Source of the DNA: a virus
Reading direction: 5' to 3' (one strand)
IMG/VR virus record: IMGVR_UViG_3300039412_000320
DNA: 64,000 nucleotides
Within the stretch, counting starts at the first letter, position 1, and each line of letters opens with the position of its first letter. This document shows, in pieces, positions 1 to 16,995 of the stretch. The notes beneath the pieces are model-generated. The model was not told the DNA's origin and searched no databases. It saw only the letters and a program-made list of their open reading frames with translations. The translations under genes were made by a program, and so were the position numbers.

Positions 1-1916
1 TTATTTCTCTCAACGTTGGCTATAATGCGGGTGCAGGAGCGCAACTCTATGTGGACGGGGTTTTATGGGCTTCTATTGCCACGGGAACCCCTAATCCAAC
101 TTACAATACAGAATTCTCAGTAGGGCTTCAAGGCACAGACACTAACGGAGGTTTTGAAGCCTACTATGACGACATTCTGGTGGACAATGGTTCTGTGACC
201 TTGGGGCCGGGCGGTGCGGTCTTGCTGCCACCGATTGCTGACTCCTCCGTGGGTACTTGGACAGCGGGGGCAGGCGGGGCAACCAATCTCTATAACGCCC
301 TCAAGACCTCGCCGCCTGCGGGGCTTGCTGATGCCTCGGCCACCAACACCAGTCAAATTCACAATTCAAACGCCACGGGCAATCAGGATTACAAAGCGCA
401 GTGTATGTCCTACCGAGCCGCAGGCGTAGCCTCCAACGCTACGATAAATGCCGTCATGGCTGTGGTGAATGATGGTACACCGACGACCTCTGCCCGTGCT
501 GGTGGAGTGTGGATAGACTCGAACCCTGCACAAAGTGCAGGTGGGCAAAGCTTCGAGTATGGCTATAGTGGGGGATTGGGGGCAATTGGAACTTTCCCTA
601 CGGGATGGAATACGCATTACGGGCCGTGCATCCAATCCCCTAGTGTCACGCTTTCCACTGCTCCTGTTGTTGCGGTTCGTAAGACCGATGCGAATGCTCA
701 GGTGGTTGACGTGGACTTTCTCGGCATCTACGTCGATTTCCAGAATGGCCCGTCGCAGCATGTGGTGATTTCGGGCTTGGAGATGGGGTCGCTATACGAA
801 GCAAACTCCTACAGTGGGTCAGGAACCATTGAAGTCATACCCGCCGCTAAACGTACAGGCAATTATGGACTTCATGCTAAGGCTGCGGCAGGACAGACAC
901 CCTACATCACTTTTACATCCCTCGATGGAAACGGGTCAAATATCATCCAGTTGGGGAGTGCCCGCTTCTATATGAAGCTATTAAGTCTTCCCGGCACGAC
1001 TCTTGCTATGTTTGGTGAATTCGGAAATATTAATAGCTGGATTATTGGTATCAATCCCACTGGAACGATTTTCGCTGGCTCATCGGCTGGAGGGGTATCG
1101 CCCAATAGCACTAATGCTCTCTCCGTAGACGGCCTCTGGCATTGTATCGCTGCTAATGTAGGCTATAACAACGGTCAGGGAATCCAACTCTACGTCGATG
1201 GGGTTCTGTGGACTAGCAAAAACACCTTTCCTTTTCTCAGTGGGTTATACAACCTTTGTTTAGGGTGTAGGACTGTTGACACCGTAGGCGGTTTTGAAGC
1301 TTATTTTGATGATTTACTTGTAGACAATGGGTCAGTCTTACTTGGTTTTGGGCAATCGGTTCTGCTTCTTCCTACGGCAGACTCCGCTATCGGTTCATGG
1401 ACTACGGGTAATGGGGGAACGTCAAACTTATTCAATGCGGTCAAAACCATCCCTCCTGTGGGTGTGGCTGATGCTAGTGCTACCAATACCAGTCAAATTC
1501 ACAATGTCAACGCTTCCGGTAACCAAGACTACAAAGCTACTTGTCAGACTTATTCTTCTGTGGGAATAGACGGCAGTTGTATCATCAATGGAGTTATGGG
1601 ATTGACAAACTGGGGGGCGGGGGTCGCCGGGACAAAGGTCGTCTCGGTGTGGATAGACTCCAATCCACCGCAAATAGCGGGTGCTGTGACAGGGAGATAC
1701 GGCGGGGGTGGAGGCATTGGCACCTTTCCATCCAATTGGGTAACCTACAATGGTGTGATCGCAGCTTTACCATCGCTTACGTTAACTTCTGGCCCCGTGG
1801 CGGCGGTGCGTAAAGTGACTTCCACTGTTTCTGCTGTTGATGTGGATTTCCTCGGTGTATATGTGGACTTCCTTCCCGGCACACCGGGTGTATCCAGCGC
1901 CTATTTCCTTGACTAG
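1..1916 (+). CDS. 5'-partial structural (fibre/lectin-like) protein with two tandem ~300-aa concanavalin-A/LamG-like repeats
   Basis: The frame is open from nt 3. The protein repeats internally ('QLYVDGVLW...GGFEAY(Y/F)DD(I/L)LVDNGSV...ASATNTSQIHN..NA(T/S)GNQDYKA...VWIDSNP...AAVRK...VDVDFLG(I/V)YVDF' occurs twice), so the true start lies upstream of the window. It is rich in NxT/S and Gly/Thr. Confidence 0.6.
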   Translation, partial: ISLNVGYNAGAGAQLYVDGVLWASIATGTPNPTYNTEFSVGLQGTDTNGGFEAYYDDILVDNGSVTLGPGGAVLLPPIADSSVGTWTAGAGGATNLYNALKTSPPAGLADASATNTSQIHNSNATGNQDYKAQCMSYRAAGVASNATINAVMAVVNDGTPTTSARAGGVWIDSNPAQSAGGQSFEYGYSGGLGAIGTFPTGWNTHYGPCIQSPSVTLSTAPVVAVRKTDANAQVVDVDFLGIYVDFQNGPSQHVVISGLEMGSLYEANSYSGSGTIEVIPAAKRTGNYGLHAKAAAGQTPYITFTSLDGNGSNIIQLGSARFYMKLLSLPGTTLAMFGEFGNINSWIIGINPTGTIFAGSSAGGVSPNSTNALSVDGLWHCIAANVGYNNGQGIQLYVDGVLWTSKNTFPFLSGLYNLCLGCRTVDTVGGFEAYFDDLLVDNGSVLLGFGQSVLLLPTADSAIGSWTTGNGGTSNLFNAVKTIPPVGVADASATNTSQIHNVNASGNQDYKATCQTYSSVGIDGSCIINGVMGLTNWGAGVAGTKVVSVWIDSNPPQIAGAVTGRYGGGGGIGTFPSNWVTYNGVIAALPSLTLTSGPVAAVRKVTSTVSAVDVDFLGVYVDFLPGTPGVSSAYFLD

Positions 1917-2030: not shown

Positions 2031-2120
2031 CCGGTTAAGGGAGAATCATGGGTGTAAAGTTTTCGGTCCGTTTTTTGTCATATTTGAACTATCTAAAACA
2101 CTTGTAGGGAGATAGTTCAA

Positions 2121-2768
2121 ATGTTTGTGTATTTAATATTTAATCGAATAAGCCTTAAGCTATACATCGGTAAGACCACGACATCCAACCTGGGTTTGTA
2201 TCTAAAAAAGAAAATTAGAGACGCTCAAAGGGGAACTTATCCCGGTAGGTCACACCTCTTTTCTGCAATGGAAAAGTACCCATCTACAGCTTGGGGGATA
2301 ATCCCGCTTATCTCAAATCTTACCACTAACGAGGAGCTTTGTTATTGGGAAACGGTTTTAATTAAAGCATTTAATACCCGTTGCCCGGAAGTTGGATACA
2401 ATATCTGTAAAGGTGGAGAAGGATGGACAGGAAGACATTCCGAAGAATCACGAAGAAGGATTGGAGAAGCCACTAGGAATAGACCCGGTCCGTGGCATAA
2501 TAGGCCAATGTCCAAAGAACATAGAAGGAAGCTAGGAGCAACCCATAAAGGTCATCCCAGTGGGATGTTGAATAAACACCACTCCGAGGAATCCCGCAAA
2601 AAGATGAGCAATGCCAAAAAGGGTAAACCCAGCCCTTGGAGGGGGAAACACTTTTCTGCCGAATCCCGTAAAAAGTTAAGTATTTCCCTTAAGGGGAAAC
2701 CATGGACAGAAAGGCGGCGCAAGGCGCAGGAGTTGAAAAGGAGAGCAAGTGAGACCACCAAACTTTAG
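2121..2768 (+). CDS. GIY-YIG homing endonuclease-like protein with NUMOD3 repeats
   Basis: N-terminus 'VYLIFN...LYIGKT' and 'GYNICKGGEG'; C-terminal repeats 'SEESRRRIG', 'SKEHRRKLG', 'SEESRKKMS', 'SAESRKKLS' are NUMOD3-type. A class A-like upstream motif lies at 2087-2110. Confidence 0.75.
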   Translation: MFVYLIFNRISLKLYIGKTTTSNLGLYLKKKIRDAQRGTYPGRSHLFSAMEKYPSTAWGIIPLISNLTTNEELCYWETVLIKAFNTRCPEVGYNICKGGEGWTGRHSEESRRRIGEATRNRPGPWHNRPMSKEHRRKLGATHKGHPSGMLNKHHSEESRKKMSNAKKGKPSPWRGKHFSAESRKKLSISLKGKPWTERRRKAQELKRRASETTKL

Positions 2769-5700
2769 CGTTTGTTTGATTGCAAGAAACGAAGCTCCGA
2801 ACCTCTGGAGAATCCACAAATCACTCAAAGAATTTCAGAAACGTGACGGCGAGGTGGTCCTCGTGGACACTGAGTCTACTGACAACACTCCGGCTGTAGC
2901 TCGTGCTTTAGGCTTCACTGTTTTCGAGGTGGGGGAGAAGTTTATCTTCACCATCCCGGAGAACCTTGCCAAGGCCATCAACACTCAGTTTGTCGTACCG
3001 CCCGAAGCTCCCATTGTCGCCGCTGGCGATAAGCTCTTTGATTATGCCGCCGCCCGCAATTATTCCGCTACCATGGCGAGCAACGATGTGGTATCCATGC
3101 CGGACTGCGATGAGCAATATACCCATCTGGATATCGACGCCATTGAACGCACCATTGACCAAGGGTTCCAGCAGATGGAATTTCACTTCATCTTCTCCCA
3201 CTATCCCAACGGTCAACCCGCTGTTCAGTTCCGGCAATGCAAGATGTACGACCGGCGTATCATGCACTGGCAGGGCATCGTCCATGAGGTTCTGGCGGGA
3301 AACGCCAAGCGCACCTACCTACCGCCCAACGTGCTTCTCTTGGAACACTTCCAAGCCCCGCAGTCACACCGCACCCGGTATCTCGCCGGGCTGTCTCTCG
3401 ATTGCTACCTCAATCAGGACAACGACCGTAACAGCCACTACCTCGGACGAGAGCTTATCTGGAACGGTCATCCCCGGTCAGCCATCAAAGAACTCACTCG
3501 GCATGTCAACATGAACCGTTGGCAACAGGAGCGGGGGCAGTCCATGATTTTCATCGGGGACGCCCACATGCAACTGGGGGAGGATGACAAGGGCATCGAA
3601 TCTTGGCACAAAGCCATCCAAATAGATGATACCCGGCGTGAGCCGTGGCTTCGTCTGGCGGATTACTACTGGAAGAAGAACAATCCGCAGCGGGTAGCCT
3701 GCTATTGTATGGCTGCTTTGGAAATCCCACCTAACGATTGCTATTGTAACGTGGGAGCGCATTACACGTATGAGCCGCATGAAAAACTTTACTGGGCGCT
3801 CTGGTGGCTGGGCGACCGGGAGAGGTCGAAAGAACACTGGAGGAAGGCGTTCGCCTACGACCCGACTAACCCCAAGTATCTTGCCGACAAGCAGTTCTAC
3901 GAGCCGACTAAATATGATTATCAAATGCCCGGAGGAGGTCAAGCCGCAGACGGCGGGGGAATCCAAGGATGGATGACCCACGGCGAGCTTGAATGGTTGT
4001 ACCATCAGGCGCAACGGGAAGAAATCCAAACCATCCTCGAATTGGGTAGCTGGAAAGGCCGGTCCACCCATGCTTTGCTTTCCGGCTTGAACGGCAAGGG
4101 CCTGCTTACCGCCGTAGATACATGGAAAGGCTCGGTTGACCCCCGTGACCAAACCAACGCCATGGCAAAGCAGGAGGATGTCCTCGGCGAGTTCAAGAAA
4201 AACGTCGGGGAGTTCAAGAACCTCGAAATCTGTCAGATGGAGAGCGCAGCGGCAGCGGAGAAGTTCCGGGCCGAGGGACGCACGTTTGACATGGTGTTTA
4301 TCGACGCCGGTCACACTTATGAGGAAGTCAAGAGAGATATCGAACTCTGGCGTCCACTTGCCAAGGTCATTCTATCCGGGCATGATTATACTAATGTTTG
4401 GGAAACCGTTAGAAAAGCAGTCGATGAGCACTGTGGGCGGACCTACCATGCCGAGAGCATTTGGTATTTGCCCGTTGAACCATTTCCACAAATCAAAGGT
4501 ACTTATTTCAAATCCCACGCTGAGATGCAGGAGAAGATTGAGAAAGGTGAGCCATTCTCCTATGTCAAGTGGAATGACGGGGAACAGCAGTGTATCGAAG
4601 GCGTAGAGGGGGCAACGTGTGACGGGCAGGCGTATAGTTTCGAGCTTAACTTAGCACTTAGGAAAGCTTACAACTTTCTCACCACTCTCCAGAACGTATA
4701 CATTAGCAACTGGAAAGAGTGGTTAGATGATAACCTCAATGACGGCGGTATACTTCTGCATAGGGAGAAGCGAGACCTCCAGCCCCTACACGATTTCTAC
4801 AAGGCCATAAAGGAGAGCGGAGTACAGAAGTTCCTCATCGCCCCGGCGAAATTGCAGGGCGCTGCCGACATGCTCAACGCTGAACTTATTGAGGTTCCCG
4901 AGCATGATGCATGGAGCAAGTATAAGGAAATCAAGGATGCCATGCTATCCAAGGTTCATACCCATGGCATCTTTCTGTTCAGTTGCGGGCTGATAAGCAA
5001 GGTGCTCATCGCTGATGCCCTCACGGCGGAGAAGGACATTTGCTGTCTCGATACCGGCAGCAGCTTTGACCCTATTTTCCTCGGACAAACCCAGACTCTA
5101 CAGGCTCCGCAAAGAGAGCTTCTGGACCTGTATGCCGACCTGCTCCCCGAGCAAAAGCAGTATATTCCCAAGAGCATTTTCACCATCTGGTTGTCAGAGA
5201 AAGAAGGCTTGCCGCCGCTCGTGGAGAAGTGTGTCAAGAGCCAGCAGATTCCCGGCTACGAACACAAGGTCTTGGGCCTAACCGATTGCCCCAAGGGTAT
5301 CCCCTATCTGGATGCCGCACTAGCTGCCAAGAAGTGGGTCAAAGCAGCGGACTACCTGCGCATTTGGTGGTTGAAGGAGTACGGCGGCATCTATGTCGAT
5401 TCTGACATGGAAATCCTGCCGGACAGGAACTTCAACCGTTTGCTTGGCAACTCGTTTTTCGTCTGCCGGGAAGACAACGGTTTTATCGCCAATAGTCTCA
5501 TCGGGGCGAAGAGGGGTCATCCCATCCTTGCGGAACATCTCGCCGAAGTGGGGGCCAAGTTCAAGGGTGATGATGACTACATTTTCCAAGCAGCACAGGA
5601 AATCCTCACCCCGAGGATAAGCAGTGCAGCACCCTCAGACCTGACAGTCAAAACTCTTCCCGCTCATGTCTTCTGTCCCTATAACCACCAAAATGGGGAG

Positions 5701-6417
5701 ATTGATGTACGGGATGACACCGTGGCTTTCCACCACTTTGCCAAAGCGTGGATTAAGGAAGACTACACTCGGGACTTCCTTCCCCGTGTCGCCGTCCTAA
5801 TACCCTCGCTGGGACGCCCGGAGGGCCTCCAGAAGTGTTTGGAGTCCGTAGACCACCTCTACTACCCCAAGCACTTGATTAAGGCATTCGTGGACGAAGG
5901 CGAGGGCACGGTAAGCCAGAAGGTCAACCGGCTCGCCGCCGCCAACCCGGACTTTGACGCTTACGTGTATGCGGCCAATGATATGGAGTTCGACCCGTGG
6001 TGTGTGTACCGGGCAGTCAAAGAAGGTCAGGGCAACCCACCCAAGGCTCACCCCTTCGAGACCCCGCCGCATTATCCCTTCGTCAAGGGATTGGTATCCT
6101 TCAACGCCGGACCGGTGTACCCGGATGAGGGGAACATCTGCGAACATTTCCTCATCAGCCGGGACTTGTACTTGAAGCTGGGGGAAATTTTCTCCGAGAA
6201 GTTTCACCACGTTGGCGTGGATAACCTTCTGTGGGTAAAGGCCAAGAAGCTTGGTCAGGTACTTCACTCTGAAACGGCAAAGATAACCCACCACCATTTC
6301 AGCAAGACTCACGTGATGGATGCTATCTACGAGAAGGGTTGGTCACAGGTGGATTCCGACCGGGCTATCCTCGCTCAAGAACTCAAAAAATTGGAAGAAA
6401 CTCCCACTGCAACGTAA
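2749..6417 (+). CDS. 1222-aa multidomain glycosyltransferase/methyltransferase (GT2 - TPR - class I SAM MTase - GT32-like DXD - GT2)
   Basis: GTG start preceded by AAGGAGAG. Domains read in order: 'FSVCLIARNEAP...EVVLVDTESTDNT...DCDE' (GT2); TPR-like helices; 'ILELGSWKGRSTHALL...VFIDAGHTYEEV' (class I SAM MTase); 'IWLSEKEG...AADYLRIWWLKEYGGIYVDSDMEIL' (Gly_transf_sug/DXD); 'AVLIPSLGRPEGLQKCLESV...KAFVDEGEG' (second GT2). Confidence 0.75.
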   Translation: MRPPNFSVCLIARNEAPNLWRIHKSLKEFQKRDGEVVLVDTESTDNTPAVARALGFTVFEVGEKFIFTIPENLAKAINTQFVVPPEAPIVAAGDKLFDYAAARNYSATMASNDVVSMPDCDEQYTHLDIDAIERTIDQGFQQMEFHFIFSHYPNGQPAVQFRQCKMYDRRIMHWQGIVHEVLAGNAKRTYLPPNVLLLEHFQAPQSHRTRYLAGLSLDCYLNQDNDRNSHYLGRELIWNGHPRSAIKELTRHVNMNRWQQERGQSMIFIGDAHMQLGEDDKGIESWHKAIQIDDTRREPWLRLADYYWKKNNPQRVACYCMAALEIPPNDCYCNVGAHYTYEPHEKLYWALWWLGDRERSKEHWRKAFAYDPTNPKYLADKQFYEPTKYDYQMPGGGQAADGGGIQGWMTHGELEWLYHQAQREEIQTILELGSWKGRSTHALLSGLNGKGLLTAVDTWKGSVDPRDQTNAMAKQEDVLGEFKKNVGEFKNLEICQMESAAAAEKFRAEGRTFDMVFIDAGHTYEEVKRDIELWRPLAKVILSGHDYTNVWETVRKAVDEHCGRTYHAESIWYLPVEPFPQIKGTYFKSHAEMQEKIEKGEPFSYVKWNDGEQQCIEGVEGATCDGQAYSFELNLALRKAYNFLTTLQNVYISNWKEWLDDNLNDGGILLHREKRDLQPLHDFYKAIKESGVQKFLIAPAKLQGAADMLNAELIEVPEHDAWSKYKEIKDAMLSKVHTHGIFLFSCGLISKVLIADALTAEKDICCLDTGSSFDPIFLGQTQTLQAPQRELLDLYADLLPEQKQYIPKSIFTIWLSEKEGLPPLVEKCVKSQQIPGYEHKVLGLTDCPKGIPYLDAALAAKKWVKAADYLRIWWLKEYGGIYVDSDMEILPDRNFNRLLGNSFFVCREDNGFIANSLIGAKRGHPILAEHLAEVGAKFKGDDDYIFQAAQEILTPRISSAAPSDLTVKTLPAHVFCPYNHQNGEIDVRDDTVAFHHFAKAWIKEDYTRDFLPRVAVLIPSLGRPEGLQKCLESVDHLYYPKHLIKAFVDEGEGTVSQKVNRLAAANPDFDAYVYAANDMEFDPWCVYRAVKEGQGNPPKAHPFETPPHYPFVKGLVSFNAGPVYPDEGNICEHFLISRDLYLKLGEIFSEKFHHVGVDNLLWVKAKKLGQVLHSETAKITHHHFSKTHVMDAIYEKGWSQVDSDRAILAQELKKLEETPTAT

Positions 6418-6453: not shown

Positions 6454-8748
6454 ATGGCACTTGTCTGTGTATTCAATCCGGTTTCCAAACTCATCGACTC
6501 TGTAGAGGGACTCGTCGTCACCTTCGTAGGGACGTGGAGTATCAATGCCGTCTATCTTGGGGGCAATGTTGCCAGTTACGGCGGCTCCCTCTGGATATCC
6601 CTCCTTGACAACAACTCAGGAAATCAGCCCGACATTTCTCCCACATGGTGGGCGCAGTATGCCTCCTCCGGTGCCACGGGACCAACAGGACCCGGAAATT
6701 TTACAGGCTATACCGGACCTACCGGACCCAGCGGATACACAGGTTATACCGGCCCCGGTAATTTCACGGGTTACTCAGGGTACACGGGACCAAGCGGTTA
6801 TACTGGACCCAGTGGATATACAGGCTACACTGGTCCCGGAAATTTTACTGGTTACTCTGGGTACACGGGATTTTCTGGTCCCACCGGTTACTCAGGATTC
6901 ACCGGGTACACCGGCCCCGGTAATTTCACGGGTTATACCGGACCCATAGGTCCCTCTGGTTACACCGGTTACTCTGGCTACACCGGCCCGACCGGGCCGG
7001 GTAATTTCACGGGTTTCTCAGGATATACAGGATACACCGGTTATACCGGAGAAGCGGGAACGGCGGCGGCTACCGGAGCTACAGGTTACAGCGGGTATTC
7101 CGGCTACACCGGCCCCACGGGGCCGACTGGACCGGGCAATTTTACCGGTTACACCGGATACACTGGACCCAGCCACACAGGCTACACTGGTTACACAGGA
7201 CCCACGGGTTCCACCGGGGCTACAGGTTACACAGGTTTTACAGGACCCGGTTCCTTTACAGGTTACACAGGTCCAACCGGCTATTTGGGCTACACTGGAC
7301 CTTCCGGTTACTCGGGTTACACGGGATATACAGGGCCAGTCGGTCCTGTTGCTTATGGTGAGATGAGCATTCAAACGAATGCCACTGCCACAACCCTCAC
7401 CACGCAAAACACTTGGTATCAAGTAGTCAACTGGACATTAGGCAGTCTTTTCCAGAACATGACGGGAAATACCTCGTCCCCCGCTACACTGACCTGCACC
7501 ACCGGTCTAGCAGCCTTAACTTGCAGGGTACATTTTACCGGCAGCGTAACCGTCTCCGCTGGTTCTCAGACTTATCAACTGTCTGTATACAAAAATGGTT
7601 CTCAGTTGGTTGACCAGACAGTTAACATTACCTCCAACGGTGGTGGTGCCCCTGCTCTGACTTACCCCGTCTCCTTGTCGGGACTCGATACTATGGCGAA
7701 CAACGATACGTTTGCTATCTTTGCTCGTTGCACCACGTCCAACGCCGTTTCTCTAACCGTCACTCAAGCCAACTTTAACATCGCTACCACTGGTATTGGA
7801 CCGAGTGGACCTACAGGCTACAGCGGTTACACCGGCTATACTGGTCCGGGTAATTTCACGGGTTATACTGGTTACACAGGTCCTAATATCACTGGTCCAA
7901 CCGGACCCACAGGCCCCGGAAATTTCACGGGTTATACCGGAGCCACGGGTTACTCAGGACCAACTGGTTACTCAGGATACACTGGACCCACGGGTTATAC
8001 CGGCTACACAGGTTACACGGGACCGCAGGGAGCTTCTGCTTATGGCGAAATGACCATCGCCAATGAGACTGTGGTTCTTACCAATCAGGGAACATGGTAT
8101 CAGCTAATCAACTGGACTACTGGACAGCTTTCCAACATGACTGGGAATACCAGCGGTACTCAAACTTTGACCTGTACCACGGGTCTGCCCGCTATCGGTT
8201 GCAATACTATCTTCACCGGCTCATTAATCATAAGTACTGCCAATCAGGCCTATCAACTGGCGGTGTTTAAGAATGGCTCTATCCTCACCGAGCACGAGAT
8301 TGATGTTCTCGAAGATAGCACCACGGAACAGGTAGCCTTTGCCATCTCCGGTATCGACAGCATGGCAGATGGAGACTACTTTGCTATCTTTGCTCGCTGT
8401 ACTACCATTGGCTCCGTTACTCTTACGATTAACCAAGGGAACTTCAACATCATCTCCATTGGACCGGGAGCTATCGGGCCTACGGGTCCAGTGGGACCTA
8501 CCGGACCAACGGGTCCCGGTAATTTTACGGGGTATACAGGCCCCCTTGGTGCGACCGGACCGGTCAGCGGCTCCCCCATTACTCCCGTGCCCTTTGCTTC
8601 CCTCGGGTCAGCGGTGGGACTGCCGGGGCGTATCGCAGCGGTCAACAACAGTGGTGTAAACACTTGGGGCGGCACTGCCAATGGCTCCGGTGGTTTCACC
8701 GTGTTGGTTTGGAGCAACGGCTCACTGTGGACCGTCATAGGTTCTTAG
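6454..8748 (+). CDS. Collagen-like repeat fibre protein with two C1q/TNF-like (BclA C-terminal-like) globular domains
   Basis: Long runs of G-Y-T/G-P-T/G-P-S triplets punctuated by a recurring 'PGNFTG'; the collagen run plus ~140-aa beta-rich head ('AYGEM(S/T)I...TWYQ(V/L)(V/I)NWT...LTCTTGL...YQL(S/A)V(Y/F)KNGS...FAIFARCTT') occurs twice; the C-terminus is Gly/Pro-rich. Confidence 0.75.
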
Positions 8749-8793: not shown

Positions 8794-9672
8794 ATGTTTA
8801 TCTATTTAATTGTCAACCGAGAGACTGGTAAATACTACATTGGTCAGCACAAGGGGAAAGACTTAAAAAAGTACTTTCAAACCAAGTTATCGGATGCTAA
8901 ACATAATCGGGGAGGAAAGTCTCACCTATATGCTTCTATGCGGAAATATCCCTTACCTTCCTCTTGGTCTATACATGCCCTCCGCTCCGATATCCAGACA
9001 AAAGAAGAGCTTGACCAAACCGAAAAAGATTTCATTAGGTTCCTGCGGTCACAGGACCCAGAATACGGTTATAACATCTGTCGTGGAGGGGAAGGACATA
9101 CCGGACCGCTTTCTCAAGAATCCGTCAAAAAAATATCGGCTTCTCTTAAAAAGTTATGGGGTGGTTCCAAGGGTAAAGAACTCCGAAGAATAAGCGGGGA
9201 AGCATCTGACAAAAGATGGGCGCAACCGGGAAAAAAGGAACGGGCATCAGAAACAATGAGGGAAATCTGGCAGCAGCTAAAACACAGAGAACATGTTTTA
9301 GGTAAACTCAGAAACTACTGGTCAGGGATATCCGATAGTAAAAAGGCTGAAATCAGCAGTAGAATTTCTGCTACCTTGATGGGTCACTTCGTATCCGAAA
9401 AATCCCGAGTTAAAATGTCTTTAGCTCTTAAGGGAAAGCCTAGTTGGAATAAAGATAAAAATTTATCTAGGGAAACAAAGAACAAAGTATCCGTCTCGAT
9501 AACCAAACTTTGGGAAGACCCGCTATATAGGGAGCACATGGTTATAGCCGCTTCTCATCCTAAGCCATATCTTAGAAAGAGATTTTGTAAACATGGACAT
9601 GATACAAATGTTTGTGGAAGATACCCTAATGGCAACTGTCGAGGCTGCCATTTGAGATTACCTCATCTTTAG
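8794..9672 (+). CDS. GIY-YIG homing endonuclease (paralog family A) with NUMOD repeats and C-terminal Cys/His cluster
   Basis: 'MFIYLIVNRETGKYYIGQHKG...YGYNICRGGEG'; C-terminus 'CKHGHDTNVCGRYPNGNCRGCH'. Confidence 0.8.
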   Translation: MFIYLIVNRETGKYYIGQHKGKDLKKYFQTKLSDAKHNRGGKSHLYASMRKYPLPSSWSIHALRSDIQTKEELDQTEKDFIRFLRSQDPEYGYNICRGGEGHTGPLSQESVKKISASLKKLWGGSKGKELRRISGEASDKRWAQPGKKERASETMREIWQQLKHREHVLGKLRNYWSGISDSKKAEISSRISATLMGHFVSEKSRVKMSLALKGKPSWNKDKNLSRETKNKVSVSITKLWEDPLYREHMVIAASHPKPYLRKRFCKHGHDTNVCGRYPNGNCRGCHLRLPHL

Positions 9673-10448: not shown

Positions 10449-11435
10449 ATGGGAAGTAAGGGTACTTGTGGTGTCTATGTAATATGGGTAAAGGACGATA
10501 ACGGAAATGAAAAGCCCTATATAGGCAGCAGCAAATGGATGGAACATAGAAGGAAACAACATCTTCAAGCACTAGCTGTTGGAAAGCACCGTAACTATAA
10601 ACTTCGGCGGGCGTGGCGGGAGTACGGACCGCAAGCGTTTAGGTTTGAGGTCCTGTTTCCTTGTGAAGAGAATGAGAGATTTGTCTGGGAAGAGTTGATG
10701 ATTCGCTTCCTTGATTCTTTTCACAATGGATACAATCTAACCCCCAATGTCATGGACCTGTCAGTGATTCCCCGCTGCAACAGACCCCTGTCTGACAAAA
10801 CCAAGAAAAAATTATCTGAATTGGCATATAAAAAGTATGAGGCCGCCTCGGAGCATGAAAAGACATCTAAGTCGTTAAAGGAGTTCTGGGGTAACGCAGA
10901 AAACCGAGAATGTCTGTTAGCACCGTACCGTACTCCCGAATATAGGGCCAAGTGTAGTTGTCTTACCACCTTGTCTTGGCAGGATGCGGTCATAAGGACA
11001 CGAAGAACGGACGGTCTCAAGAAAGTTATGGCTACGACAGCTTACCGCCATAATCTTTCAGCTTCCTTGACGGGAAAGAAGAAATCGGCACAACACGCCG
11101 AGAATATAGCATTGGGGGCCAAGAAAAAATATAGAAACCCTGCGGAGAGGAAAAAAACCAGCGACTCCCTCCATACTCCCGATGCGCACGCCAAGCTATC
11201 CGAGAAATCCTTTGTGGCTTGGCAAAACCCGATTTATAGAAACCACCTAAGCGAATGCCGTCGTCTCCAATGGCTTAAACCGGGCGTGCGGGAAACAATG
11301 GGGGAAAAAATAGCGGCTGGTTTGGCCAAGCCCGGAGTACTTGAAAAACGAAACCAAAAAATCAGTGAAGGATTAAAGCGGGCGTGGGCGAGAAAAAAAC
11401 TTCTAAGGGTTAAAAGTATAGAAAACTCCCCATGA
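10449..11435 (+). CDS. GIY-YIG homing endonuclease (I-TevI/Seg-like) with NUMOD repeats
   Basis: 'GVYVIWV...YIGSS...RRKQH...FEVLF...GYN'; a class A-like motif lies at 10416-10440. Confidence 0.8.
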   Translation: MGSKGTCGVYVIWVKDDNGNEKPYIGSSKWMEHRRKQHLQALAVGKHRNYKLRRAWREYGPQAFRFEVLFPCEENERFVWEELMIRFLDSFHNGYNLTPNVMDLSVIPRCNRPLSDKTKKKLSELAYKKYEAASEHEKTSKSLKEFWGNAENRECLLAPYRTPEYRAKCSCLTTLSWQDAVIRTRRTDGLKKVMATTAYRHNLSASLTGKKKSAQHAENIALGAKKKYRNPAERKKTSDSLHTPDAHAKLSEKSFVAWQNPIYRNHLSECRRLQWLKPGVRETMGEKIAAGLAKPGVLEKRNQKISEGLKRAWARKKLLRVKSIENSP

Positions 11436-11463: not shown

Positions 11464-13281
11464 ATGGGCGACCCTTCTATTGTCATTGAGCAGAATAAGG
11501 AAAGAAGTCTTCCGTTCAAGGAACTCAATACAGAGGCATCCCCTCAAATCCGGGACCACTTCCCCTTTCCGACCATCCGGGCATCGCAGGAGGTAGCTCT
11601 TCAGGTGATAGAAAGGGCTATCAAGGAAGGCAAGAAATACATCATAATGGAACTCCCGTGCGGGGTCGGGAAATCCGGGATTAGTGTTGCGGCTGGCTCC
11701 CTTGCCAAGACCTTCAAAACGCCAGCAGGATACCAGCAGGGGGCATACGTGCTTTCCCCGCAAAAGGTCCTCACAGAACAGTATGTTAATGACTTCGGTG
11801 ATATGGGCCTTGTTGAGCTTAAAGGAAAGGCCAACTACACCTGCCCCGGATATACTTGGGAAGAGACGGGCGAGCTTATGAACTGCGAGGACGCCGCTTT
11901 TAACTACGAAGAGCAGCACAAGGAGGTAGGGGGATGCGGGGGATATAAGCCCGCCAAAGAGGCATTTGTCAACAGTCCACTCGGAGTCACCAACTTTGCC
12001 TATTACCTAAGCGAGACAGCCCACGCCAGTCAGCTTAAGCCCCGTACCATGTTAATTTTAGACGAAGCTCATAATACAGAACAGCACATTCTCTCCCTTG
12101 CCAGTATTGAGATAACCCGATATCGCTGTGAGGAAGCAAGTCTTGATTTTAGCTCCGTACCCTTTATCACGCCCGATGCCGTGGGCATAGGAGAAGCCCT
12201 TGACTGGCTTAACCAGACATTCCGTCCTGCCGCTACAGAAGCCATCCAAAGACTCAGCTTTAACGCCGAGGAACGCCGGGATATGGGAATGCAGAAGGAA
12301 GCTTCAAAGCTTAAGCGGCGGGCAAGCGGCATGGAGAGATTCATCGGACAGCTTGACTTGTTTCTTAAGTCGGAGAACCGCAAGGATTGGATGGTATGGT
12401 CGGAGTCGGAAATCGAGAGGTGCCCCCAGTGCTGTGTGAAGCAAAAATACTCAGGGAAGAAGGAGTGCTGGAAGTGCCACAGCAGGCTCCCCCTGACCCC
12501 GGCAAAGATGATTATCAAGCCACTGACGGCTACCTTGTTCGCCGAGCCGGCCTTGTTCAGCAAGGCGGACAAGGTTATAATGTTGTCCGCCACTATCCTT
12601 GACTTCAATACTTTTTTGCGTAACCTTGGAATCAACCGAAATGACGCTGTATGCGTGGCGGTCCCGAGTGAGTTCCCGGTATGCAACCGCCCCATTTACT
12701 ACCGCCCAGTAGGGAACATGAACTACGGAAACATTGAGGCAACTCTTCCCAAGATGGCGGAGGAAGTGGGTAGGATAATGCGGAAGTACCCCAACAACAA
12801 GGGTATCGTGCATTGCGTGAGCTTCCGAGTGACTAATTACCTTATAAAGTACTTGACAGAAGGAGGGCTTGGCGGACGCATCCTTACCCATTCGGGAGAA
12901 GATACTGGGTCAAGGGAAAGGGTGGTGGAGGAGCATATTGCTTCGTCTTCTCCCTCAGTACTCTTTAGCCCAAGTCTGTCAGAGGGGCTGGATCTCAAGG
13001 AGGACCTGTCAAGGTTCCAGGTTATAGTCAAGATTCCCTATAAGGCATTAGACGTGTATGTCAAGGCACGGATGGCGCTTGATATGGACTGGTATAACCT
13101 ACAGGCGGCAATCTCGCTTGTCCAAGCGACGGGAAGGTCGGTAAGGTCGATGACTGATAGGGCAGACACCTACATCCTTGATTCCGGGTTTGAATCATTC
13201 ATAAAGCGAGCGGGGCATATGCTGCCAGAATGGTGGGTGGAGGCAGTAAAATTTCCCGGTGAATATACGATTGATTGGTAG
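11464..13281 (+). CDS. Rad3/XPD/DinG-family DEAH-box DNA helicase
   Basis: 'RASQ', Walker A 'ELPCGVGKSG', 'LILDEAHN', CxxC...CxxC insert and motif VI 'QATGRSVRS'. Confidence 0.75.
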   Translation: MGDPSIVIEQNKERSLPFKELNTEASPQIRDHFPFPTIRASQEVALQVIERAIKEGKKYIIMELPCGVGKSGISVAAGSLAKTFKTPAGYQQGAYVLSPQKVLTEQYVNDFGDMGLVELKGKANYTCPGYTWEETGELMNCEDAAFNYEEQHKEVGGCGGYKPAKEAFVNSPLGVTNFAYYLSETAHASQLKPRTMLILDEAHNTEQHILSLASIEITRYRCEEASLDFSSVPFITPDAVGIGEALDWLNQTFRPAATEAIQRLSFNAEERRDMGMQKEASKLKRRASGMERFIGQLDLFLKSENRKDWMVWSESEIERCPQCCVKQKYSGKKECWKCHSRLPLTPAKMIIKPLTATLFAEPALFSKADKVIMLSATILDFNTFLRNLGINRNDAVCVAVPSEFPVCNRPIYYRPVGNMNYGNIEATLPKMAEEVGRIMRKYPNNKGIVHCVSFRVTNYLIKYLTEGGLGGRILTHSGEDTGSRERVVEEHIASSSPSVLFSPSLSEGLDLKEDLSRFQVIVKIPYKALDVYVKARMALDMDWYNLQAAISLVQATGRSVRSMTDRADTYILDSGFESFIKRAGHMLPEWWVEAVKFPGEYTIDW

Positions 13282-13339: not shown

Positions 13340-13798
13340 ATGAAAACCATCAAAATGACCCGCACCATCCGTAGAGAGATTAACGGGATGTTCATAACCA
13401 TAGGACCGGAGGGTCTCACCTTTCGGCAGAAGCGCCAGCCGAAAGAGGATACACTCCGTCTGACGTGGGAACAGGCACTTGCAAATGCGGTTGTCGAAGA
13501 ACAAAACAGACCTACCCCGCTTGTTGAAATCAAGCCGGTACCTGACGACCCGGCACAGGTTCCCATGTTCCCCGAGCTTTCTCAACCCCTGACGAATGCT
13601 CACTTGACAGGATTCAAGCGGCTCCTACCTGAGTACGACATCCCGGCTTGCGGCCCGGAGGTTGGGGTTCACATGACGCACTGCAACATGGGAGGGTATG
13701 TTGGGGTGTGTAAGTATGGCGAGCATGACACCTGTCCCGCTCTGGAGACCCCCAAAATCGACGTGGACGAGGTTCTCAGTACCGAAGGAGACGTATGA
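13340..13798 (+). CDS. hypothetical protein
   Basis: ORF with SD 'GGAGGAAG' upstream; its stop overlaps the next start. Confidence 0.5.
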   Translation: MKTIKMTRTIRREINGMFITIGPEGLTFRQKRQPKEDTLRLTWEQALANAVVEEQNRPTPLVEIKPVPDDPAQVPMFPELSQPLTNAHLTGFKRLLPEYDIPACGPEVGVHMTHCNMGGYVGVCKYGEHDTCPALETPKIDVDEVLSTEGDV

Positions 13799-14094
13799 AG
13801 GAAAAGACTCCACTAGAAAAAGCGCAGGAGAAGGTTGTCTATATCCATGTCGCCCTCACCCTCAACGTTGACGAGGGGTCCGAGGTCTACATGCGCCCAC
13901 ATAACCCCTTCTTCGAGTTCAGCAATGACTTCTTCAAGCGGCTCCAGAACCAAATGAAAACCCGTTTGAAGTTTGCAGAAATGGGGATAGAGGACTTCAC
14001 TGCCGTGGAGACATTCGTCATGATGGTCCTCGGAGAATCCGAAGTACGCAGTATTGGAATACCAGAGGGTAAACCATGTCCGAAGAAAAAATGA
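13795..14094 (+). CDS. hypothetical protein
   Basis: ATGA start/stop overlap with neighbours. Confidence 0.45.
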   Translation: MKEKTPLEKAQEKVVYIHVALTLNVDEGSEVYMRPHNPFFEFSNDFFKRLQNQMKTRLKFAEMGIEDFTAVETFVMMVLGESEVRSIGIPEGKPCPKKK

Positions 14095-14318
14095 CCGATT
14101 GCGTTGACATTGACCATCCCCTGCCATGGGAAACACACCCCTGCGGGTGTGTGGTGGACGGCAACTACCAGATTGTGCAGGAGTGCCCGGACCCCGGCTG
14201 CATGACGAAGGCATACCTCGTCAACGCCGGGGGTTGTCACGTGTGCGGAGCGGCGGATACACGGGCGGTACAGGCGAAGGCTCAGAGGGAGCCGGTGAAG
14301 AAAGAATACGTGAACTGA
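14076..14318 (+). CDS. hypothetical Cys-rich small protein
   Basis: 'CGCVVDGNYQIVQECPDPGC...CHVCG'. Confidence 0.45.
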   Translation: MSEEKMTDCVDIDHPLPWETHPCGCVVDGNYQIVQECPDPGCMTKAYLVNAGGCHVCGAADTRAVQAKAQREPVKKEYVN

Positions 14319-14611
14319 TGCGTAGGTCCCGCCCGAGGTATCCAAAGCCGCAGGAAGTGCTGTCCTACAAGACGGCTCTGGAGCAGACCATCCCCGTGGA
14401 TACGCCCATGGTGATGGGCTGGAGGGAAAGTGCCAAGCTTATCCCTAACTGGCGCTTTCAGGGCCTCACAGGGGGCGTAGAATGGGTTGTAGACGTATAC
14501 TGTGGAGGTTACTGCTACGTTTCCGTGGGTAGGTACAACGAACGGGTTAAGTCCATAATGGCCGCTTTGAAATTTCTGCGTGCCCACCTTGCGGCAAGGG
14601 GAGTATTGTGA
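14318..14611 (+). CDS. hypothetical protein
   Basis: ATG at 14318 overlaps the TGA of the upstream gene; the upstream part of the tracked ORF 14126-14611 overlaps another gene out of frame. Confidence 0.4.
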   Translation: MRRSRPRYPKPQEVLSYKTALEQTIPVDTPMVMGWRESAKLIPNWRFQGLTGGVEWVVDVYCGGYCYVSVGRYNERVKSIMAALKFLRAHLAARGVL

Positions 14612-14645
14612 TATCCAGTTTTGAAACTATAGCACTCTATAGTGA

Positions 14646-15215
14646 ATGGAAACAAAGGAGTGCTGTATGCGAACCTTGGCTAGTGAAAAAAAGATAATTT
14701 CTCCCGGCACAAAGATGGGAATGCTTACCGTTTTGGGCTTGGTTGAGGGGAAAACATCCTTTGGGTATAGGGTTTATCGCTGTCAATGTGATTGTGGAAA
14801 AATGGTAGAGAGGGGAAGCGGGAGGCTCCGTGATTTCCGGTGTCGTGTAAGTTGTGGAAATCACTGGCATAGACCTCTTGGTGCGGCTGCGGCTCACGTT
14901 GTTTATTTGAATTACCAAACGAATGCTAAGCGTAGGGGGCATGTATTTGAGTTATCGGAGGACGAGTTTTTAGCGGTCTGTGAGCAGGATTGTCACTATT
15001 GCGGGGCTAAACCCAAGAGCGGAAACTGGAAGCACTTTAAGCGGTGCTTCGGGGATTTTTCATATAATGGTATAGATAGGAAGGATAACTCTTTGGGGTA
15101 CATCATAGGAAATTGTCTTCCTTGCTGTGGGACGTGCAATTACTCCAAGAGGGGACTGTCTTATCAAGAATACATAAGTCAGTGTCAAAGGGTTGCAATC
15201 CTTCACCCTTGCTAG
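14646..15215 (+). CDS. HNH homing endonuclease
   Basis: 'CHYCGAKP...YNGIDRKDNSLGYIIGNCLPCCGTCNYSK'. Confidence 0.8.
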   Translation: METKECCMRTLASEKKIISPGTKMGMLTVLGLVEGKTSFGYRVYRCQCDCGKMVERGSGRLRDFRCRVSCGNHWHRPLGAAAAHVVYLNYQTNAKRRGHVFELSEDEFLAVCEQDCHYCGAKPKSGNWKHFKRCFGDFSYNGIDRKDNSLGYIIGNCLPCCGTCNYSKRGLSYQEYISQCQRVAILHPC

Positions 15216-15236
15216 TGGATTTTGGTATTATATAAT

Positions 15237-15968
15237 ATGATAAAAAGCTCAAATACAGCTAATGGCACCCCTCCAGTTTTAGTTCCTCTTTCCACGTTAG
15301 AAGACTTAAAGAGAGTACTCTTCGTGCAAAAAACTATTGCACAGGAATGTCGCCGGGAGTTGATAGCGACCGCCACGGCGAAAGAGATTGCCACGGGCGA
15401 GGTATCCGCCCCGGAGGAAATGCGCCGGATAATCAAGGCGCAGACCGCCCTGCTGGAGAAGTACGCCAAATATCCCACCCTGTCGGAGTTCATGTTCCAC
15501 CCCGACCTTGCCGGGTCCACCCGGTGGGGAGCGACCTTTGGGGTGACTATCCTCGTCCGGGCGCTCATCCTTGACCCCATCAAAGCAGCTATGCAGGCGT
15601 TTGCTCCCTTCATGCGGAGTATCTACCTTCTGCTCATTAAAGAGTTAGACAACCCTACCCACGAGTATCTTATCGAGCCATTGGAAGAGAACATCAAGTT
15701 CCGGGTAACTATGGGCGAGAACGGTGAGGAAATCACCGACGAGCGCAGCACTCTGCTCACCCGTAAGCTCCTTTACCAAGTCACGGAAAGCCTGTTGATG
15801 ATAAGTGCCCAGTACGGCATCATTGGAGCCACGCCGGGAGGGTTCCAGATAACTGATATGGGTCGCCGGGTTTTACTCCATCTTGTTGACTCTTCAGTTT
15901 TTTTAGAAGAACTTGTGGAGGCCCACAAACGTTTTCAATCTGAAAAGCCGAAACTTAATTTTATATGA
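15237..15968 (+). CDS. hypothetical protein
   Basis: ATG directly after 'GGTATTATATAAT' (class B -10-like, no SD). Confidence 0.45.
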   Translation: MIKSSNTANGTPPVLVPLSTLEDLKRVLFVQKTIAQECRRELIATATAKEIATGEVSAPEEMRRIIKAQTALLEKYAKYPTLSEFMFHPDLAGSTRWGATFGVTILVRALILDPIKAAMQAFAPFMRSIYLLLIKELDNPTHEYLIEPLEENIKFRVTMGENGEEITDERSTLLTRKLLYQVTESLLMISAQYGIIGATPGGFQITDMGRRVLLHLVDSSVFLEELVEAHKRFQSEKPKLNFI

Positions 15969-16012
15969 CGACTGGAAAAATGAACTTTCTAAATCCTTTA
16001 TAGGGATTATTC

Positions 16013-16791: not shown

Positions 16792-16950
16792 ATGAAAGTT
16801 TTCCCCGCTCACGGTCCCCTCGTCGTCCTGCTGGTCCTTCTCCTCATGCTGACCGCTGACGACTTCATTTTTCCCTCCAGCACTGTCGTTGTATCTATAA
16901 TTGTTGTCTATGGTTTAATAAGATTCTTCCAGTGGCTCTGGAAGCTATAA
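16792..16950 (+). CDS. possible small hydrophobic membrane protein
   Basis: 52 aa with two hydrophobic stretches; no clear SD. Confidence 0.25.
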   Translation: MKVFPAHGPLVVLLVLLLMLTADDFIFPSSTVVVSIIVVYGLIRFFQWLWKL

Positions 16951-16973
16951 ATTTCTCCCAAAACGGCCATTTT

Positions 16974-16995
16974 CGTGGTATACTGTAGGTGGAAG
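16974..16995 (+). promoter_or_regulatory. Class B promoter-like motif CGTGGTATACTGTAGGTGGAAG (extended -10 TGGTATACT + SD-like)
   Basis: A near-identical copy lies at 17233-17255. Confidence 0.5.

Follow-up and report, generated by a model that had tools for sequence, protein, structure and literature searches.

The product of the gene at 2749..6417 (+) of the window, that is, of the whole 64-kb stretch of viral DNA that was analysed, is best understood, with a probability of roughly 0.7, as a soluble, cytoplasmic, single-polypeptide assembly line for the O-glycan of the virion fibre encoded at 6454..8748 (+). The acceptor, the sugars, the order of the linkages and the methylation site are given below as we infer them. 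The 1,222-residue protein has the module order GT2 - TPR - Methyltransf_24 - GT-D (DUF1792) - GT32 - GT2-like and thus carries five catalytic modules, four glycosyltransferases and one SAM-dependent methyltransferase. The GT-D module, the protein acceptor, the family context and the origin of the GTG start are new with respect to the preliminary description of this DNA.

Integrity of the gene and origin of its start codon

The ORF list and the translation gave a single unbroken frame of 1222 aa plus stop, opening with GTG and preceded by AGGAG 7 nt before the start, in agreement with the ORF first described. The identical 1222-aa protein is recorded on three contigs, one of which, a separate JGI contig, was read; a full-length copy with 92% identity (L002) lies on a 317-kb IMG/VR viral contig, a further one with 72% identity on a third contig, and dozens of full-length relatives share 54-76% identity with the protein. 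Because of these copies on other contigs, the fusion is a genuine ORF and no product of assembly or frameshift errors. A chimeric contig or a decaying pseudogene with inactive modules could also be imagined, the loss of the native start to a mobile element in favour of a non-canonical codon being the point in its favour; the good Shine-Dalgarno (SD) sequence ahead of the GTG, the retention of the first β-strand, the intact catalytic motifs and the independent copies effectively refute any such reading.

The mobile element is a GIY-YIG/NUMOD3-type homing-endonuclease ORF at 2121..2768 (+) (Pfam NUMOD3, 9e-18; PHROG homing endonuclease), lodged in the fusion gene at the 5' end. The 3' end of the endonuclease ORF bears the SD sequence and overlaps the new GTG. 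This ORF is missing from L002, whose gene begins ATGGGCGTAAAGTTTTCGGTTTGTCTCATAGCAAGAAAT, with an ATG start. DNA alignment with L002 located the orphaned original 5' end as a 19-codon stub at 2048..2107 (+), carrying ATGGGTGTAAAGTTTTCGGT (MGVKFSV), and the first β-strand (FSVCLIARNE) is preserved after the GTG. The GTG start, correctly noted at first sight, is therefore secondary, the native start having been displaced by a homing-endonuclease cassette within the first codons of the gene.

Domain organisation

Scans against Pfam, PHROG and NCBIfam, with Glycos_transf_2, TPR_2, Methyltransf_24 and Caps_synth/Gly_transf_sug all above the Pfam curated thresholds, supported the GT2, methyltransferase and GT32 modules of the preliminary description, which had counted four catalytic modules and missed the GT-D. 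The catalytic motifs of all modules are invariant across the relatives. The N-terminal GT2 (GT-A) module A (residues 1-200; 2749..3348, +) matched Glycos_transf_2 (PF00535, residues 7-59) with 42.6 bits against a cut-off of 23.3, and carries D119-C-D121-E122, in which D-x-D-E is unchanged in 116/116 family members. It is followed by module T, a TPR-like helical repeat domain (residues 201-395; 3349..3933, +), with TPR_2 at residues 268-294 (30.8 bits against 27) and strong profile matches to TPR proteins.

Module M (residues 405-572; 3961..4464, +) is a class I SAM-dependent methyltransferase of the Methyltransf_24 type (PF13578, 61.5 bits against 26.3, residues 430-546), with profile matches to 6g7d (4.5e-8) and SAM O-methyltransferases; its E431-x-G-S-x-x-G and F-I-D-x-x-H motifs are unchanged in 104/104 members, and a role as a glycan O-methyltransferase is proposed. 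PHROG 2675, which matches this module, is labelled 'DNA methyltransferase', phage glycosyltransferases often act on DNA, and replication genes lie a few kb away (helicase at 11464..13281), so that a hypermodification of the phage DNA, with modified bases glycosylated and methylated against restriction, may be considered. This appears very improbable: the profile is that of O-methyltransferase-type class I enzymes and not of DNA methyltransferases, genes for base hydroxymethylation were not found among the ORFs tested, and the linkage to collagen-like genes described below would be left unexplained. Moreover, GT-A+TPR, GT-D and GT32 are, to our knowledge, not architectures of DNA glycosyltransferases.

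Between the methyltransferase and the GT32 lies module D (residues ~585-795; 4501..5133, +), a glycosyltransferase of the GT-D fold (DUF1792) with the DXE motif D610-G-E612. Its family profile matched GalT1 in the PDB (4pfx/4phr, E 1.1e-8; 5v4a, 7e-5), the GDGE of the family (NDGE in the present protein) aligning with the GDGE of GalT1; PF22882 was matched by 17 of 20 members and PF08759 by 12 of 20, and D-G-E is unchanged in 59/59. The characterised GT-D enzyme, dGT1 (GalT1) of the Fap1 system, elongates a protein O-glycan on a serine-rich repeat adhesin. Module G (residues 800-995; 5146..5733, +) is a GT32-like glycosyltransferase, matching Caps_synth (34.3 bits against 24.5) and Gly_transf_sug (30 against 23) at residues 801-908; its DSDME at 884-888 includes D884-S-D886, and this D-x-D is unchanged in 65/65 members. 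The DXD signatures of modules A and G are hence intact, as had been noted.

The C-terminal module C (residues 1000-1222; 5746..6414, +) gave no Pfam match and only weak profile matches to GT2 enzymes (9jma, 1.6e-4). Its AF2 model (pLDDT 90.8) nevertheless indicates a GT-A/GT2-like fold, with PcManGT, RmlT, SpsA, ppGalNAc-T2 and TarP (E 1e-7 to 1e-5) as well as viral GT2s among the Foldseek matches, so that the earlier assignment as a GT2 stands for the predicted fold. Since the DXD position retains a single Asp (D1078 in N1077-D1078, this Asp being unchanged in 102/102 members), its activity is less certain; His134/155/182/184 (module numbering) are also conserved.

The GT2-TPR core as a proposed protein O-glycosyltransferase

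The family profile of module A matched the glycosyltransferase domain of GmaR (22ao_A) with E 1.9e-15 and SunS with 1e-6. Distant homologs of the A+T core in Clostridia are 363-aa stand-alone GT2-TPR proteins with 27-31% identity to it, one of which aligns end-to-end with the core (31% identity, BLASTP E 6e-40). Their genes lie directly 5' of genes for GPT-collagen (BclA-like) proteins, as in the sgtA-bclA3 pair of C. difficile. These alignments show the core to be homologous to the GmaR-type bacterial protein O-glycosyltransferases and to SgtA-like enzymes. In GmaR the N-terminal glycosyltransferase domain attaches GlcNAc to flagellin and the TPR that follows was proposed to bind the substrate (PMC9638930). 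SgtA likewise consists of GT-A and TPR, its gene is immediately upstream of bclA3, and the enzyme, which requires Mn2+, puts β-O-GlcNAc on Thr, and also on Ser, of the GPT collagen repeats (PMC7157674). By analogy, module A is proposed to be an initiating protein O-glycosyltransferase and module T to recognise the acceptor protein. Some relatives have an N-terminal module resembling the autotransporter O-heptosyltransferase TibC (JGI name and PF01075), which is likewise of a protein glycosyltransferase type.

The core belongs to a PHROG family with the label 'beta-1,4-glycosyltransferase (LOS)' and the class moron, and polysaccharide synthesis is where members of Caps_synth/GT32 and GT2 are typically found; both observations count against an assembly line for a fibre. 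The corresponding alternative, in which the protein remodels surface glycans of the host (LPS/LOS, capsule, teichoic acid) as a 'moron' of seroconversion or superinfection exclusion, could draw on the 'beta-1,4-glycosyltransferase' name and moron category of PHROG 13126, on a PaBG homolog annotated 'UDP-glucose LOS-beta-1,4 glucosyltransferase', on the Caps_synth match and on the wall teichoic acid enzymes RmlT and TarP among the fold neighbours of module C. The LOS and moron annotations are, however, unverified names, and no membrane anchor was found in the protein, whose hydropathy peak of 1.83 falls in the GT-D core. The TPR docking domain and the homology to GmaR and SgtA-like enzymes favour a protein acceptor, the gene is placed in structural and fibre modules and not in lysogeny modules, and the collagen linkage is strong, all of which makes this alternative quite unlikely.

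The collagen-like neighbour

The ORF at 6454..8748 (+), the only collagen-like one within the window, encodes a fibre protein of 764 aa, the proposed acceptor. In its translation, runs of four or more G-X-Y triplets add up to 89 triplets, which have Tyr/Pro at X and, at Y, Thr in 51 and Ser in 19; the protein has two paralogous all-β head domains and a weakly CBM5/12-like N-terminus, and matched Pfam Collagen (5.6e-27) and PHROG tail-fibre families. Of 80 viral loci of the fusion family, 68 had, at a distance of up to 10 kb, a collagen-like ORF in which Thr/Ser made up at least 50% of the Y positions; among 120 random viral loci comparable in total length there was 1 (Fisher p ~1e-39). The linkage persisted after de-replication, in 29/37 clusters when the identity threshold was 70% and in 20/24 when it was 60%; the median distance was 1.6 kb. 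The neighbours have the repeat in common, not the globular domains. These counts show a close and ancient linkage of the family genes to those of collagen-like proteins with Thr/Ser at Y, a pairing of fibre and enzyme conserved across many uncultivated phages. Such a gene is absent within 10 kb in 12/80 loci (8/37 clusters), so that the link is strong, not universal, at least at this distance, and part of it could come from both genes residing in hypervariable tail-fibre islands.

These 12 loci, together with a 42-kb phage contig (L037) in which the family gene lies within the virion structural module among several structural genes, are what might be expected if the enzyme glycosylated other virion proteins (capsid, tail tube, other fibres) instead of or besides the collagen-like one. 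There is a precedent in mycobacteriophages, where phage-encoded glycosyltransferases place glycans on the C-termini of capsid and tail-tube proteins (Freeman et al. 2023, in the summary given by PMC12619734). The conserved neighbour is, however, specifically the G-X-T/S repeat gene, the same pairing occurs in Clostridia, for which experiments have identified the substrate, and no co-varying gene class besides the collagen-like genes was seen. An action on other virion proteins is accordingly considered unlikely.

Module shuffling and the proposed pathway

The fusion had been described as unusual; it proved to be one arrangement of a large combinatorial family, comprising 718 representatives of 50%-identity clusters (E<=1e-30), in which shuffling, duplication and exchange of modules are seen. 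Among 120 close relatives, at least 30 module orders occur; relatives have up to six catalytic domains, compared with five here. Such shuffling would diversify the glycan shown on phage fibres.

All the catalytic signatures being conserved, the building and methylation of an oligosaccharide, earlier estimated at no fewer than two to three sugars, is the natural reading; with the GT-D module, the simple expectation becomes up to four. In the proposed pathway the TPR would, during infection, dock the enzyme on the collagen repeats of the fibre while these are nascent or unfolded, and module A would use a nucleotide-sugar of the host to place a first sugar on Thr/Ser hydroxyls of the repeats. If SgtA and GmaR are a guide, this sugar would be a HexNAc from UDP-GlcNAc, with Mn2+/Mg2+ held at D119/D121. 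The tethered GT-D, GT32 and C-terminal GT-A modules could each add one more sugar, so that the glycan would be a tetrasaccharide at most, or a branched variant, and Methyltransf_24 may O-methylate a sugar, probably the terminal one, as a cap. The end product would be a densely glycosylated fibre, with ~70 candidate Thr/Ser sites. Since no nucleotide-sugar pathway genes occur among the window ORFs tested, the donors are not guessable from context.

Comparison with known systems

The closest parallel is SgtA-BclA3, in which a GT-A (GT2-type) domain is followed by TPR and the gene adjoins a collagen-like gene with G-X-Thr triplets; the likeness is drawn via the stand-alone Clostridia enzymes, which have the same gene arrangement and 27-31% identity over the full core. 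The bacterial SgtA, of 358 aa, stands alone, whereas the phage core is fused to three more glycosyltransferases and a methyltransferase, and its putative substrate, the virion fibre, has Tyr/Pro at X. The glycosyltransferases that extend the glycan of BclA3 are unknown (PMC7157674). The glycosylation of BclA in B. anthracis offers a looser parallel. GmaR of Listeria monocytogenes, whose structure (22ao_A) is the solved one that matches best in sequence, also begins with GT2 and TPR, but its C-terminal part is an anti-repressor domain with no further transferases, and it adds a single sugar to flagellin.

The match of module D to dGT1/GalT1 of Streptococcus parasanguinis includes the DXE metal motif; the similarity is low, single module D sequences falling below the Pfam threshold, and dGT1 itself comes from a bacterium and has two domains. 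A literature search yielded no account of phage GT-D domains. Among viruses, separate genes encode the glycosyltransferases with which mycobacteriophages decorate their own structural proteins, at capsid and tail-tube C-termini (PMC12619734). The collagen-like proteins of Mimivirus are glycosylated by L230, a lysyl hydroxylase and glycosyltransferase of unrelated architecture and different chemistry, which transfers Glc onto hydroxylysine. A064R of the chlorovirus PBCV-1, described as one of few enzymes to unite three transferase domains, combines two glycosyltransferase domains with a SAM methyltransferase in one polypeptide; it assembles the end of a glycan on a structural protein and 2-O-methylates it (PMC9614988). 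The likeness to A064R (and A111/114R), as virus-encoded combinations of several glycosyltransferases and a methyltransferase, is a functional analogy only. A064R belongs to a eukaryotic giant virus, has the N-glycan on the major capsid protein as its target and possesses three catalytic domains, with neither a TPR nor an initiating domain, compared with the five of the present protein.

The fusion gene and its setting

The fusion gene lies at 2749..6417 on the plus strand as an uninterrupted ORF with a GTG start and an AGGAG element 7 bases upstream, and encodes a protein of 1222 amino acids in which a transmembrane segment is absent. The preliminary description of a single-ORF fusion starting at GTG was borne out: the identical 1222-aa protein is recorded for three contigs, of which the one inspected is a separate JGI contig, and further copies are found on the 316,945-bp IMG/VR contig L002 (full length, 92% identity) and on the 59-kb contig L003 (72%). 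The search for homologous fusions which it had proposed returned many full-length relatives, at 54-76% identity, in independent metagenomes. Against these independent copies, the possibility that frameshift or sequencing errors joined separate enzymes artificially is negligible. A near-identity DNA search of GenBank phages gave no match, and the tblastn matches, at about 26%, were confined to the GT2-TPR region and came from PaBG, Lu11 and further phages, so that an annotated close relative is absent.

The window is phage DNA, carrying genes for a terminase, a family-A-type DNA polymerase, a helicase, a clamp loader, a RecA-like protein and several GIY-YIG/NUMOD3 homing endonucleases. No nucleotide-sugar pathway genes were present among the about 30 window ORFs tested. 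A separate GT-B-type glycosyltransferase ORF (48389..49549; Glyco_trans_1_4, 27.1 bits, at threshold) is located far from the fusion gene, and 58125..59279 encodes an InPase-family pyrophosphatase domain. Two large ORFs gave no match in the one database against which each was scanned, 35792..37945 (717 aa) in Pfam and 60582..63839 (1085 aa) in PHROGs.

Modules and catalytic signatures

The protein was divided into six modules, A-T-M-D-G-C, which were mapped on 120 relatives by phmmer. Matches above the curated Pfam thresholds were obtained for Glycos_transf_2 (residues 7-59), TPR_2 (268-294), Methyltransf_24 (430-546) and Caps_synth/Gly_transf_sug (801-908), together with a faint GT-D signal at residues 683-780, and the domain calls of PHROGs and NCBIfam concur with those of Pfam. 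The preliminary description had proposed HMM searches for the domain boundaries; these placed A, TPR, M and G, while C has no Pfam match and D falls below the cut-off. Since no significant match came from single-sequence PDB searches with modules M, G and C, family profiles were required.

Module A (residues 1-200) is a GT2 domain (PF00535, 42.6 bits against a cut-off of 23.3) and is followed by the TPR module T (201-395); A and T form the constant core of the relatives and are nearly always N-terminal. Module M (405-572) belongs to Methyltransf_24 (PF13578, 61.5 bits against 26.3), a class I SAM-dependent methyltransferase, and its SAM-binding motif I, E431-x-G-S-x-x-G, is invariant in 104/104 family members. 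The closest matches of the M family profile are PDB 6g7d (E 4.5e-8), probably a mycobacterial sugar O-methyltransferase, and SAM-dependent O-methyltransferases rather than DNA methyltransferases; that the protein, a phage enzyme with a methyltransferase domain, modifies DNA is accordingly very improbable.

Module D (585-795) was assigned to the GT-D fold/DUF1792 (PF08759, PF22882) by profile homology. By itself it remains under the curated Pfam threshold (13.4-19.7 bits against a cut-off of 27), and the GT-D-like PF22882 is matched by 17 of 20 module D members at E 1.5e-5 or weaker. A profile of 20 sequences matches the GT-D-fold structures 4pfx/4phr (GalT1 DUF1792; E 1.1e-8) and 5v4a (E 7e-5), and the family motif K-x-GDGE aligns with the GDGE (DXE metal-binding) motif of the 4pfx/4phr enzyme, D610-G-E612 being invariant in all 59 members. 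On this profile homology, module D is classed as a GT-D-type glycosyltransferase. Module G (800-995) is GT32-like (PF04488 Gly_transf_sug, 30.0 bits against 23; PF05704 Caps_synth, 34.3 against 24.5).

For module C (1000-1222) the NCBIfam and PHROG matches were only faint, and a 32-sequence alignment led to weak GT2 matches. Its AlphaFold (AF2) model (pLDDT 90.8) has a GT-A fold, for which Foldseek returned GT2 enzymes at E 1e-7 and TM 0.5-0.63; the closest PDB neighbours are the GT2-type PcManGT, RmlT, SpsA and TarP, plus ppGalNAc-T2, and the model is also similar to viral GT2 proteins. The DXD signatures DCDE and DSDME had been described as intact, and this holds for module A (D119-x-D121-E122, invariant in 116/116) and module G (D884-x-D886, 65/65). 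Module C keeps at this position a single conserved Asp, D1078 (102/102), preceded by Asn in 95 of the 102. The GT2, methyltransferase, GT32 and C-terminal GT2-like modules named at first are all present, but their count of four overlooked module D; as the catalytic signatures of A, D, G, C and M are invariant across the family, the protein contains five catalytic modules, of which C is the less certain, and a TPR domain.

Relatives and module orders

A profile of the A-T core, used in an exhaustive search, retrieved 718 cluster representatives (50% identity) at E<=1e-30, with lengths from about 360-400 aa (stand-alone core) to about 1,400 aa; the longest relative in the first relative search has 1,526 aa. 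The 120 closest proteins exhibit at least 30 distinct module orders, the frequent ones being A-T-M-C and A-T-M-C-G (17 each), A-T-D-C (14) and A-T-M-G-C (13), and A-T-M-D-G-C occurs in seven, the window protein included. In some relatives the G or D modules are duplicated. Others contain extra modules, namely Methyltransf_11, a radical-SAM domain and an N-terminal TibC-like autotransporter O-heptosyltransferase, which are candidates for further tailoring activities. Among individual proteins, P0096, P0097, P0099, P0075, P0017 and P0111 carry the N-terminal TibC-like heptosyltransferase (GT9), C-terminal radical-SAM, Methyltransf_11 or unassigned inserts of about 180-240 aa, and in P0009 such an insert at residues 517-742 replaces GT-D.

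Within 185,579 species-representative genomes the family was found on 16 MAG contigs only, mostly of 12-43 kb and of scattered taxonomy, and on no isolate contig, so that no cultured host emerged; this is consistent with mis-binned phage contigs.

The collagen-like fibre gene

Directly downstream of the fusion gene, the fibre gene (6454..8748, plus strand) encodes a 764-aa protein of collagen triplets, with 89 triplets in runs of at least four, in which Y is Thr (51) or Ser (19) and X is Tyr/Pro. Its matches are Pfam Collagen and tail-fibre families of PHROGs, and no other ORF of the 64-kb window is collagen-like. On L002 the fibre gene likewise follows the fusion gene and a 1,259-aa collagen-like gene is also present upstream; on L003 another, different collagen-like gene (1,272 aa) follows it.

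The linkage was examined on 80 viral loci of 46-98% identity fetched via A-T alignment (1.32 Mb), with 120 viral loci fetched with an arbitrary 14-mer (1.08 Mb) as the control, in which none of the family modules was present. A collagen-like ORF, defined by at least 10 triplets with at least 50% Thr/Ser at Y, was present no farther than 10 kb away at 68 of the 80 family loci and at 1 of the 120 control loci (Fisher p ~1e-39). When the cores were clustered, the neighbour remained in 29 of 37 clusters (70% identity) and in 20 of 24 (60%). It lies at a median distance of 1.6 kb, almost always in the orientation of the GT gene, and the two genes often abut. Twelve of the 80 loci have neither a collagen-like gene within 10 kb nor an obvious substitute, and on a 42-kb phage contig the GT gene lies amid virion structural and collagen-like tail-fibre genes. 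Such settings would leave some room for virion proteins other than the fibre as the acceptors, which, beside the linkage at the other 68 loci, we consider improbable.

A docking domain common to the collagen-like neighbours was sought and rejected. A CBM5/12-like N-terminus heads the other collagen-like genes of L002, L003 and the relative locus L007, but occurs in only 13 of 118 family-linked collagen ORFs; the only other carrier of the fibre head domains is the closest relative. The repeat is therefore the only element common to the neighbours. In the fibre protein itself, the N-terminus (6454..6690) has a weak, below-threshold likeness to CBM_5_12 (E 0.0049), and the collagen stalk is broken up by two head domains (7339..7797 and 8041..8478), both all-beta and Cys-containing, which are paralogues with 51% identity. 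For these, Pfam, PDB and a large protein search gave no hits, although the exact gene occurs on a JGI contig, and the AF2 model from a two-sequence alignment (pLDDT 53.5) is too poor for classification.

Upstream, the 621-aa ORF at 51..1916 shows an internal tandem duplication of a unit of about 300 aa, both halves ending in ...AVRK...VDVDFLG.YVDF, without a Pfam or PHROG match. A 397-aa single-unit homolog is located on L002 (8675..9868) between the collagen-like gene and the fusion gene. The ORF may encode a further fibre or structural protein, or else an additional member of the system.

Displacement of the start by a homing endonuclease

Alignment with L002 located the native ATG start, preceded by its own SD; this original 5' end (ATGGGTGTAAAGTTTTCGGT, MGVKFSV) persists at 2048..2067 and leads into a short out-of-context stub that ends at 2107. 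An insert of about 700 bp (2069..2748) after codon 7 of the fusion gene carries a GIY-YIG/NUMOD3 homing endonuclease ORF (2121..2768), and the gene restarts with GTG-AGA-CCA-CCA-AAC-TTT-AGC-GTT-TGT-TTG-ATT, where FSVCLI is written in different, synonymous codons. Since the native start is stranded upstream and the gene resumes at GTG, the cassette supplies an SD and a new start overlapping its own stop. The synonymous re-coding would destroy the nuclease target site, and the arrangement at 2048..2768 resembles homing into a coding sequence without an intron, the cassette contributing a substitute start. A group I intron was considered because ...TTTTCGGT joined to TTGTTTGATT... would restore the N-terminus of the relative; it is unlikely, and was rejected, since Rfam group I intron models gave no match even at E<=10 and the non-ORF sequence around the endonuclease ORF, only about 50 nt and about 8 nt, leaves no space for a catalytic core.

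Further GIY-YIG/NUMOD3 ORFs are found at 8794..9672, 10449..11435 and 42156..42905. The first two, which lie between the fibre and helicase genes, are apparently missing from L002, in which a single small ORF separates the fibre gene (13709..16003) from the helicase (16795..18609), so that the window genome is unusually rich in homing endonucleases compared to L002.

Proposed function

On homology and gene context, we propose, with a probability of roughly 0.7, that the fusion protein glycosylates the collagen-like fibre. The TPR domain would dock on the repeat region of the fibre protein and module A would put the first sugar on Thr/Ser, by analogy a HexNAc for which the host supplies the UDP-sugar; the GT-D, GT32 and C-terminal GT-A modules may then lengthen the glycan by up to three further sugars, and the methyltransferase would O-methylate it. 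A role of the same transferases on host surface glycans is quite unlikely, the core being homologous to protein O-glycosyltransferases and linked to G-X-Thr/Ser collagen genes.

More tentatively, the family may be regarded as a phage-borne combinatorial glycan assembly line, in which an SgtA/GmaR-like initiator is combined with interchangeable GT-D, GT32, GT-A, MT24, MT11, heptosyltransferase and radical SAM modules, the module content encoding a methylated O-glycan dense on collagen-like fibres. Shuffling of the modules and hypervariable fibre heads could then constitute a fast-evolving 'glyco-code' that serves to recognise hosts or to evade defences of the host or the environment; we regard this as a speculation that is possible rather than probable.

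If glycosylation of the fibre is correct, many uncultivated phages, jumbo phages included, coat collagen-like fibres with self-made methylated O-glycans, and phage virion glycosylation reaches far past the mycobacteriophage cases, tied to a simple G-X-Thr/Ser acceptor motif. The family would also provide the extender enzymes still unidentified for BclA-type collagen glycoproteins. The fusion protein would be a natural instance of a single soluble polypeptide that unites several glycosyltransferases and a methyltransferase with its own domain for docking the substrate, and for this reason attractive for glyco-engineering of programmable O-glycans on a trivially encodable repeat; the variety of module orders is a ready comparative set for relating architecture to glycan structure.

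Comparison with known systems

The ingredients have precedent in SgtA-BclA3, GmaR, A064R and mycobacteriophage virion glycosylation. The literature search returned no paper on this phage GT family, on a GT-D domain in phages, on a phage GT-collagen linkage or on a five-transferase polypeptide like the fusion protein.

With designed TPR proteins set aside, the A-T profile finds its best matches among solved structures in the GT domain of Listeria GmaR (22ao_A, E 1.9e-15) and in SunS, a peptide S-glycosyltransferase. The core, an N-terminal GT-A domain followed directly by TPR repeats, has the GmaR/SgtA-type layout. In GmaR, it is the N-terminal GT domain that attaches GlcNAc to flagellin, and for the TPR domain that comes next a role in substrate recognition has been proposed (PMC9638930).

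The remotest genome matches to the core (27-31% identity) are stand-alone 363-aa GT2-TPR proteins of Clostridia, one of which aligns with the phage core end to end (31% identity, E 6e-40), and each of their genes adjoins, immediately upstream, a GPT-repeat collagen-like gene. In the Clostridia MAG locus L214 (10028..12655), and also in L215-L217, the stand-alone gene is located immediately 5' of that for a 510-aa GPT-collagen protein with a globular C-terminus; these appear to be uncharacterised SgtA-BclA-like pairs of gut Clostridia. In C. difficile, the gene for SgtA (GT-A + TPR, 358 aa) lies directly upstream of bclA3, and SgtA in vitro transfers, in a Mn2+-dependent manner, the initiating beta-O-GlcNAc to Thr, also Ser, of GPT collagen repeats; the enzymes extending the BclA3 glycan were never found (PMC7157674). 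The sgtA-bclA3 gene order is thus the same as in the Clostridia homolog pairs, the likeness to SgtA consisting in architecture and in these homologs, and the position of sgtA beside the gene of its G-X-Thr repeat-protein substrate has its counterpart in the fusion gene and the gene of its putative fibre substrate and, within 10 kb, in 68 of the 80 loci.

For the extension and tailoring part, the closest functional analogues are chlorovirus A064R, whose two GT domains and 2-O-methyltransferase work on the capsid glycan and which is described as 'one of the few' enzymes to contain three transferase domains (PMC9614988), and the BclA glycan of B. anthracis, composed of three rhamnoses plus anthrose (PMC6947953).
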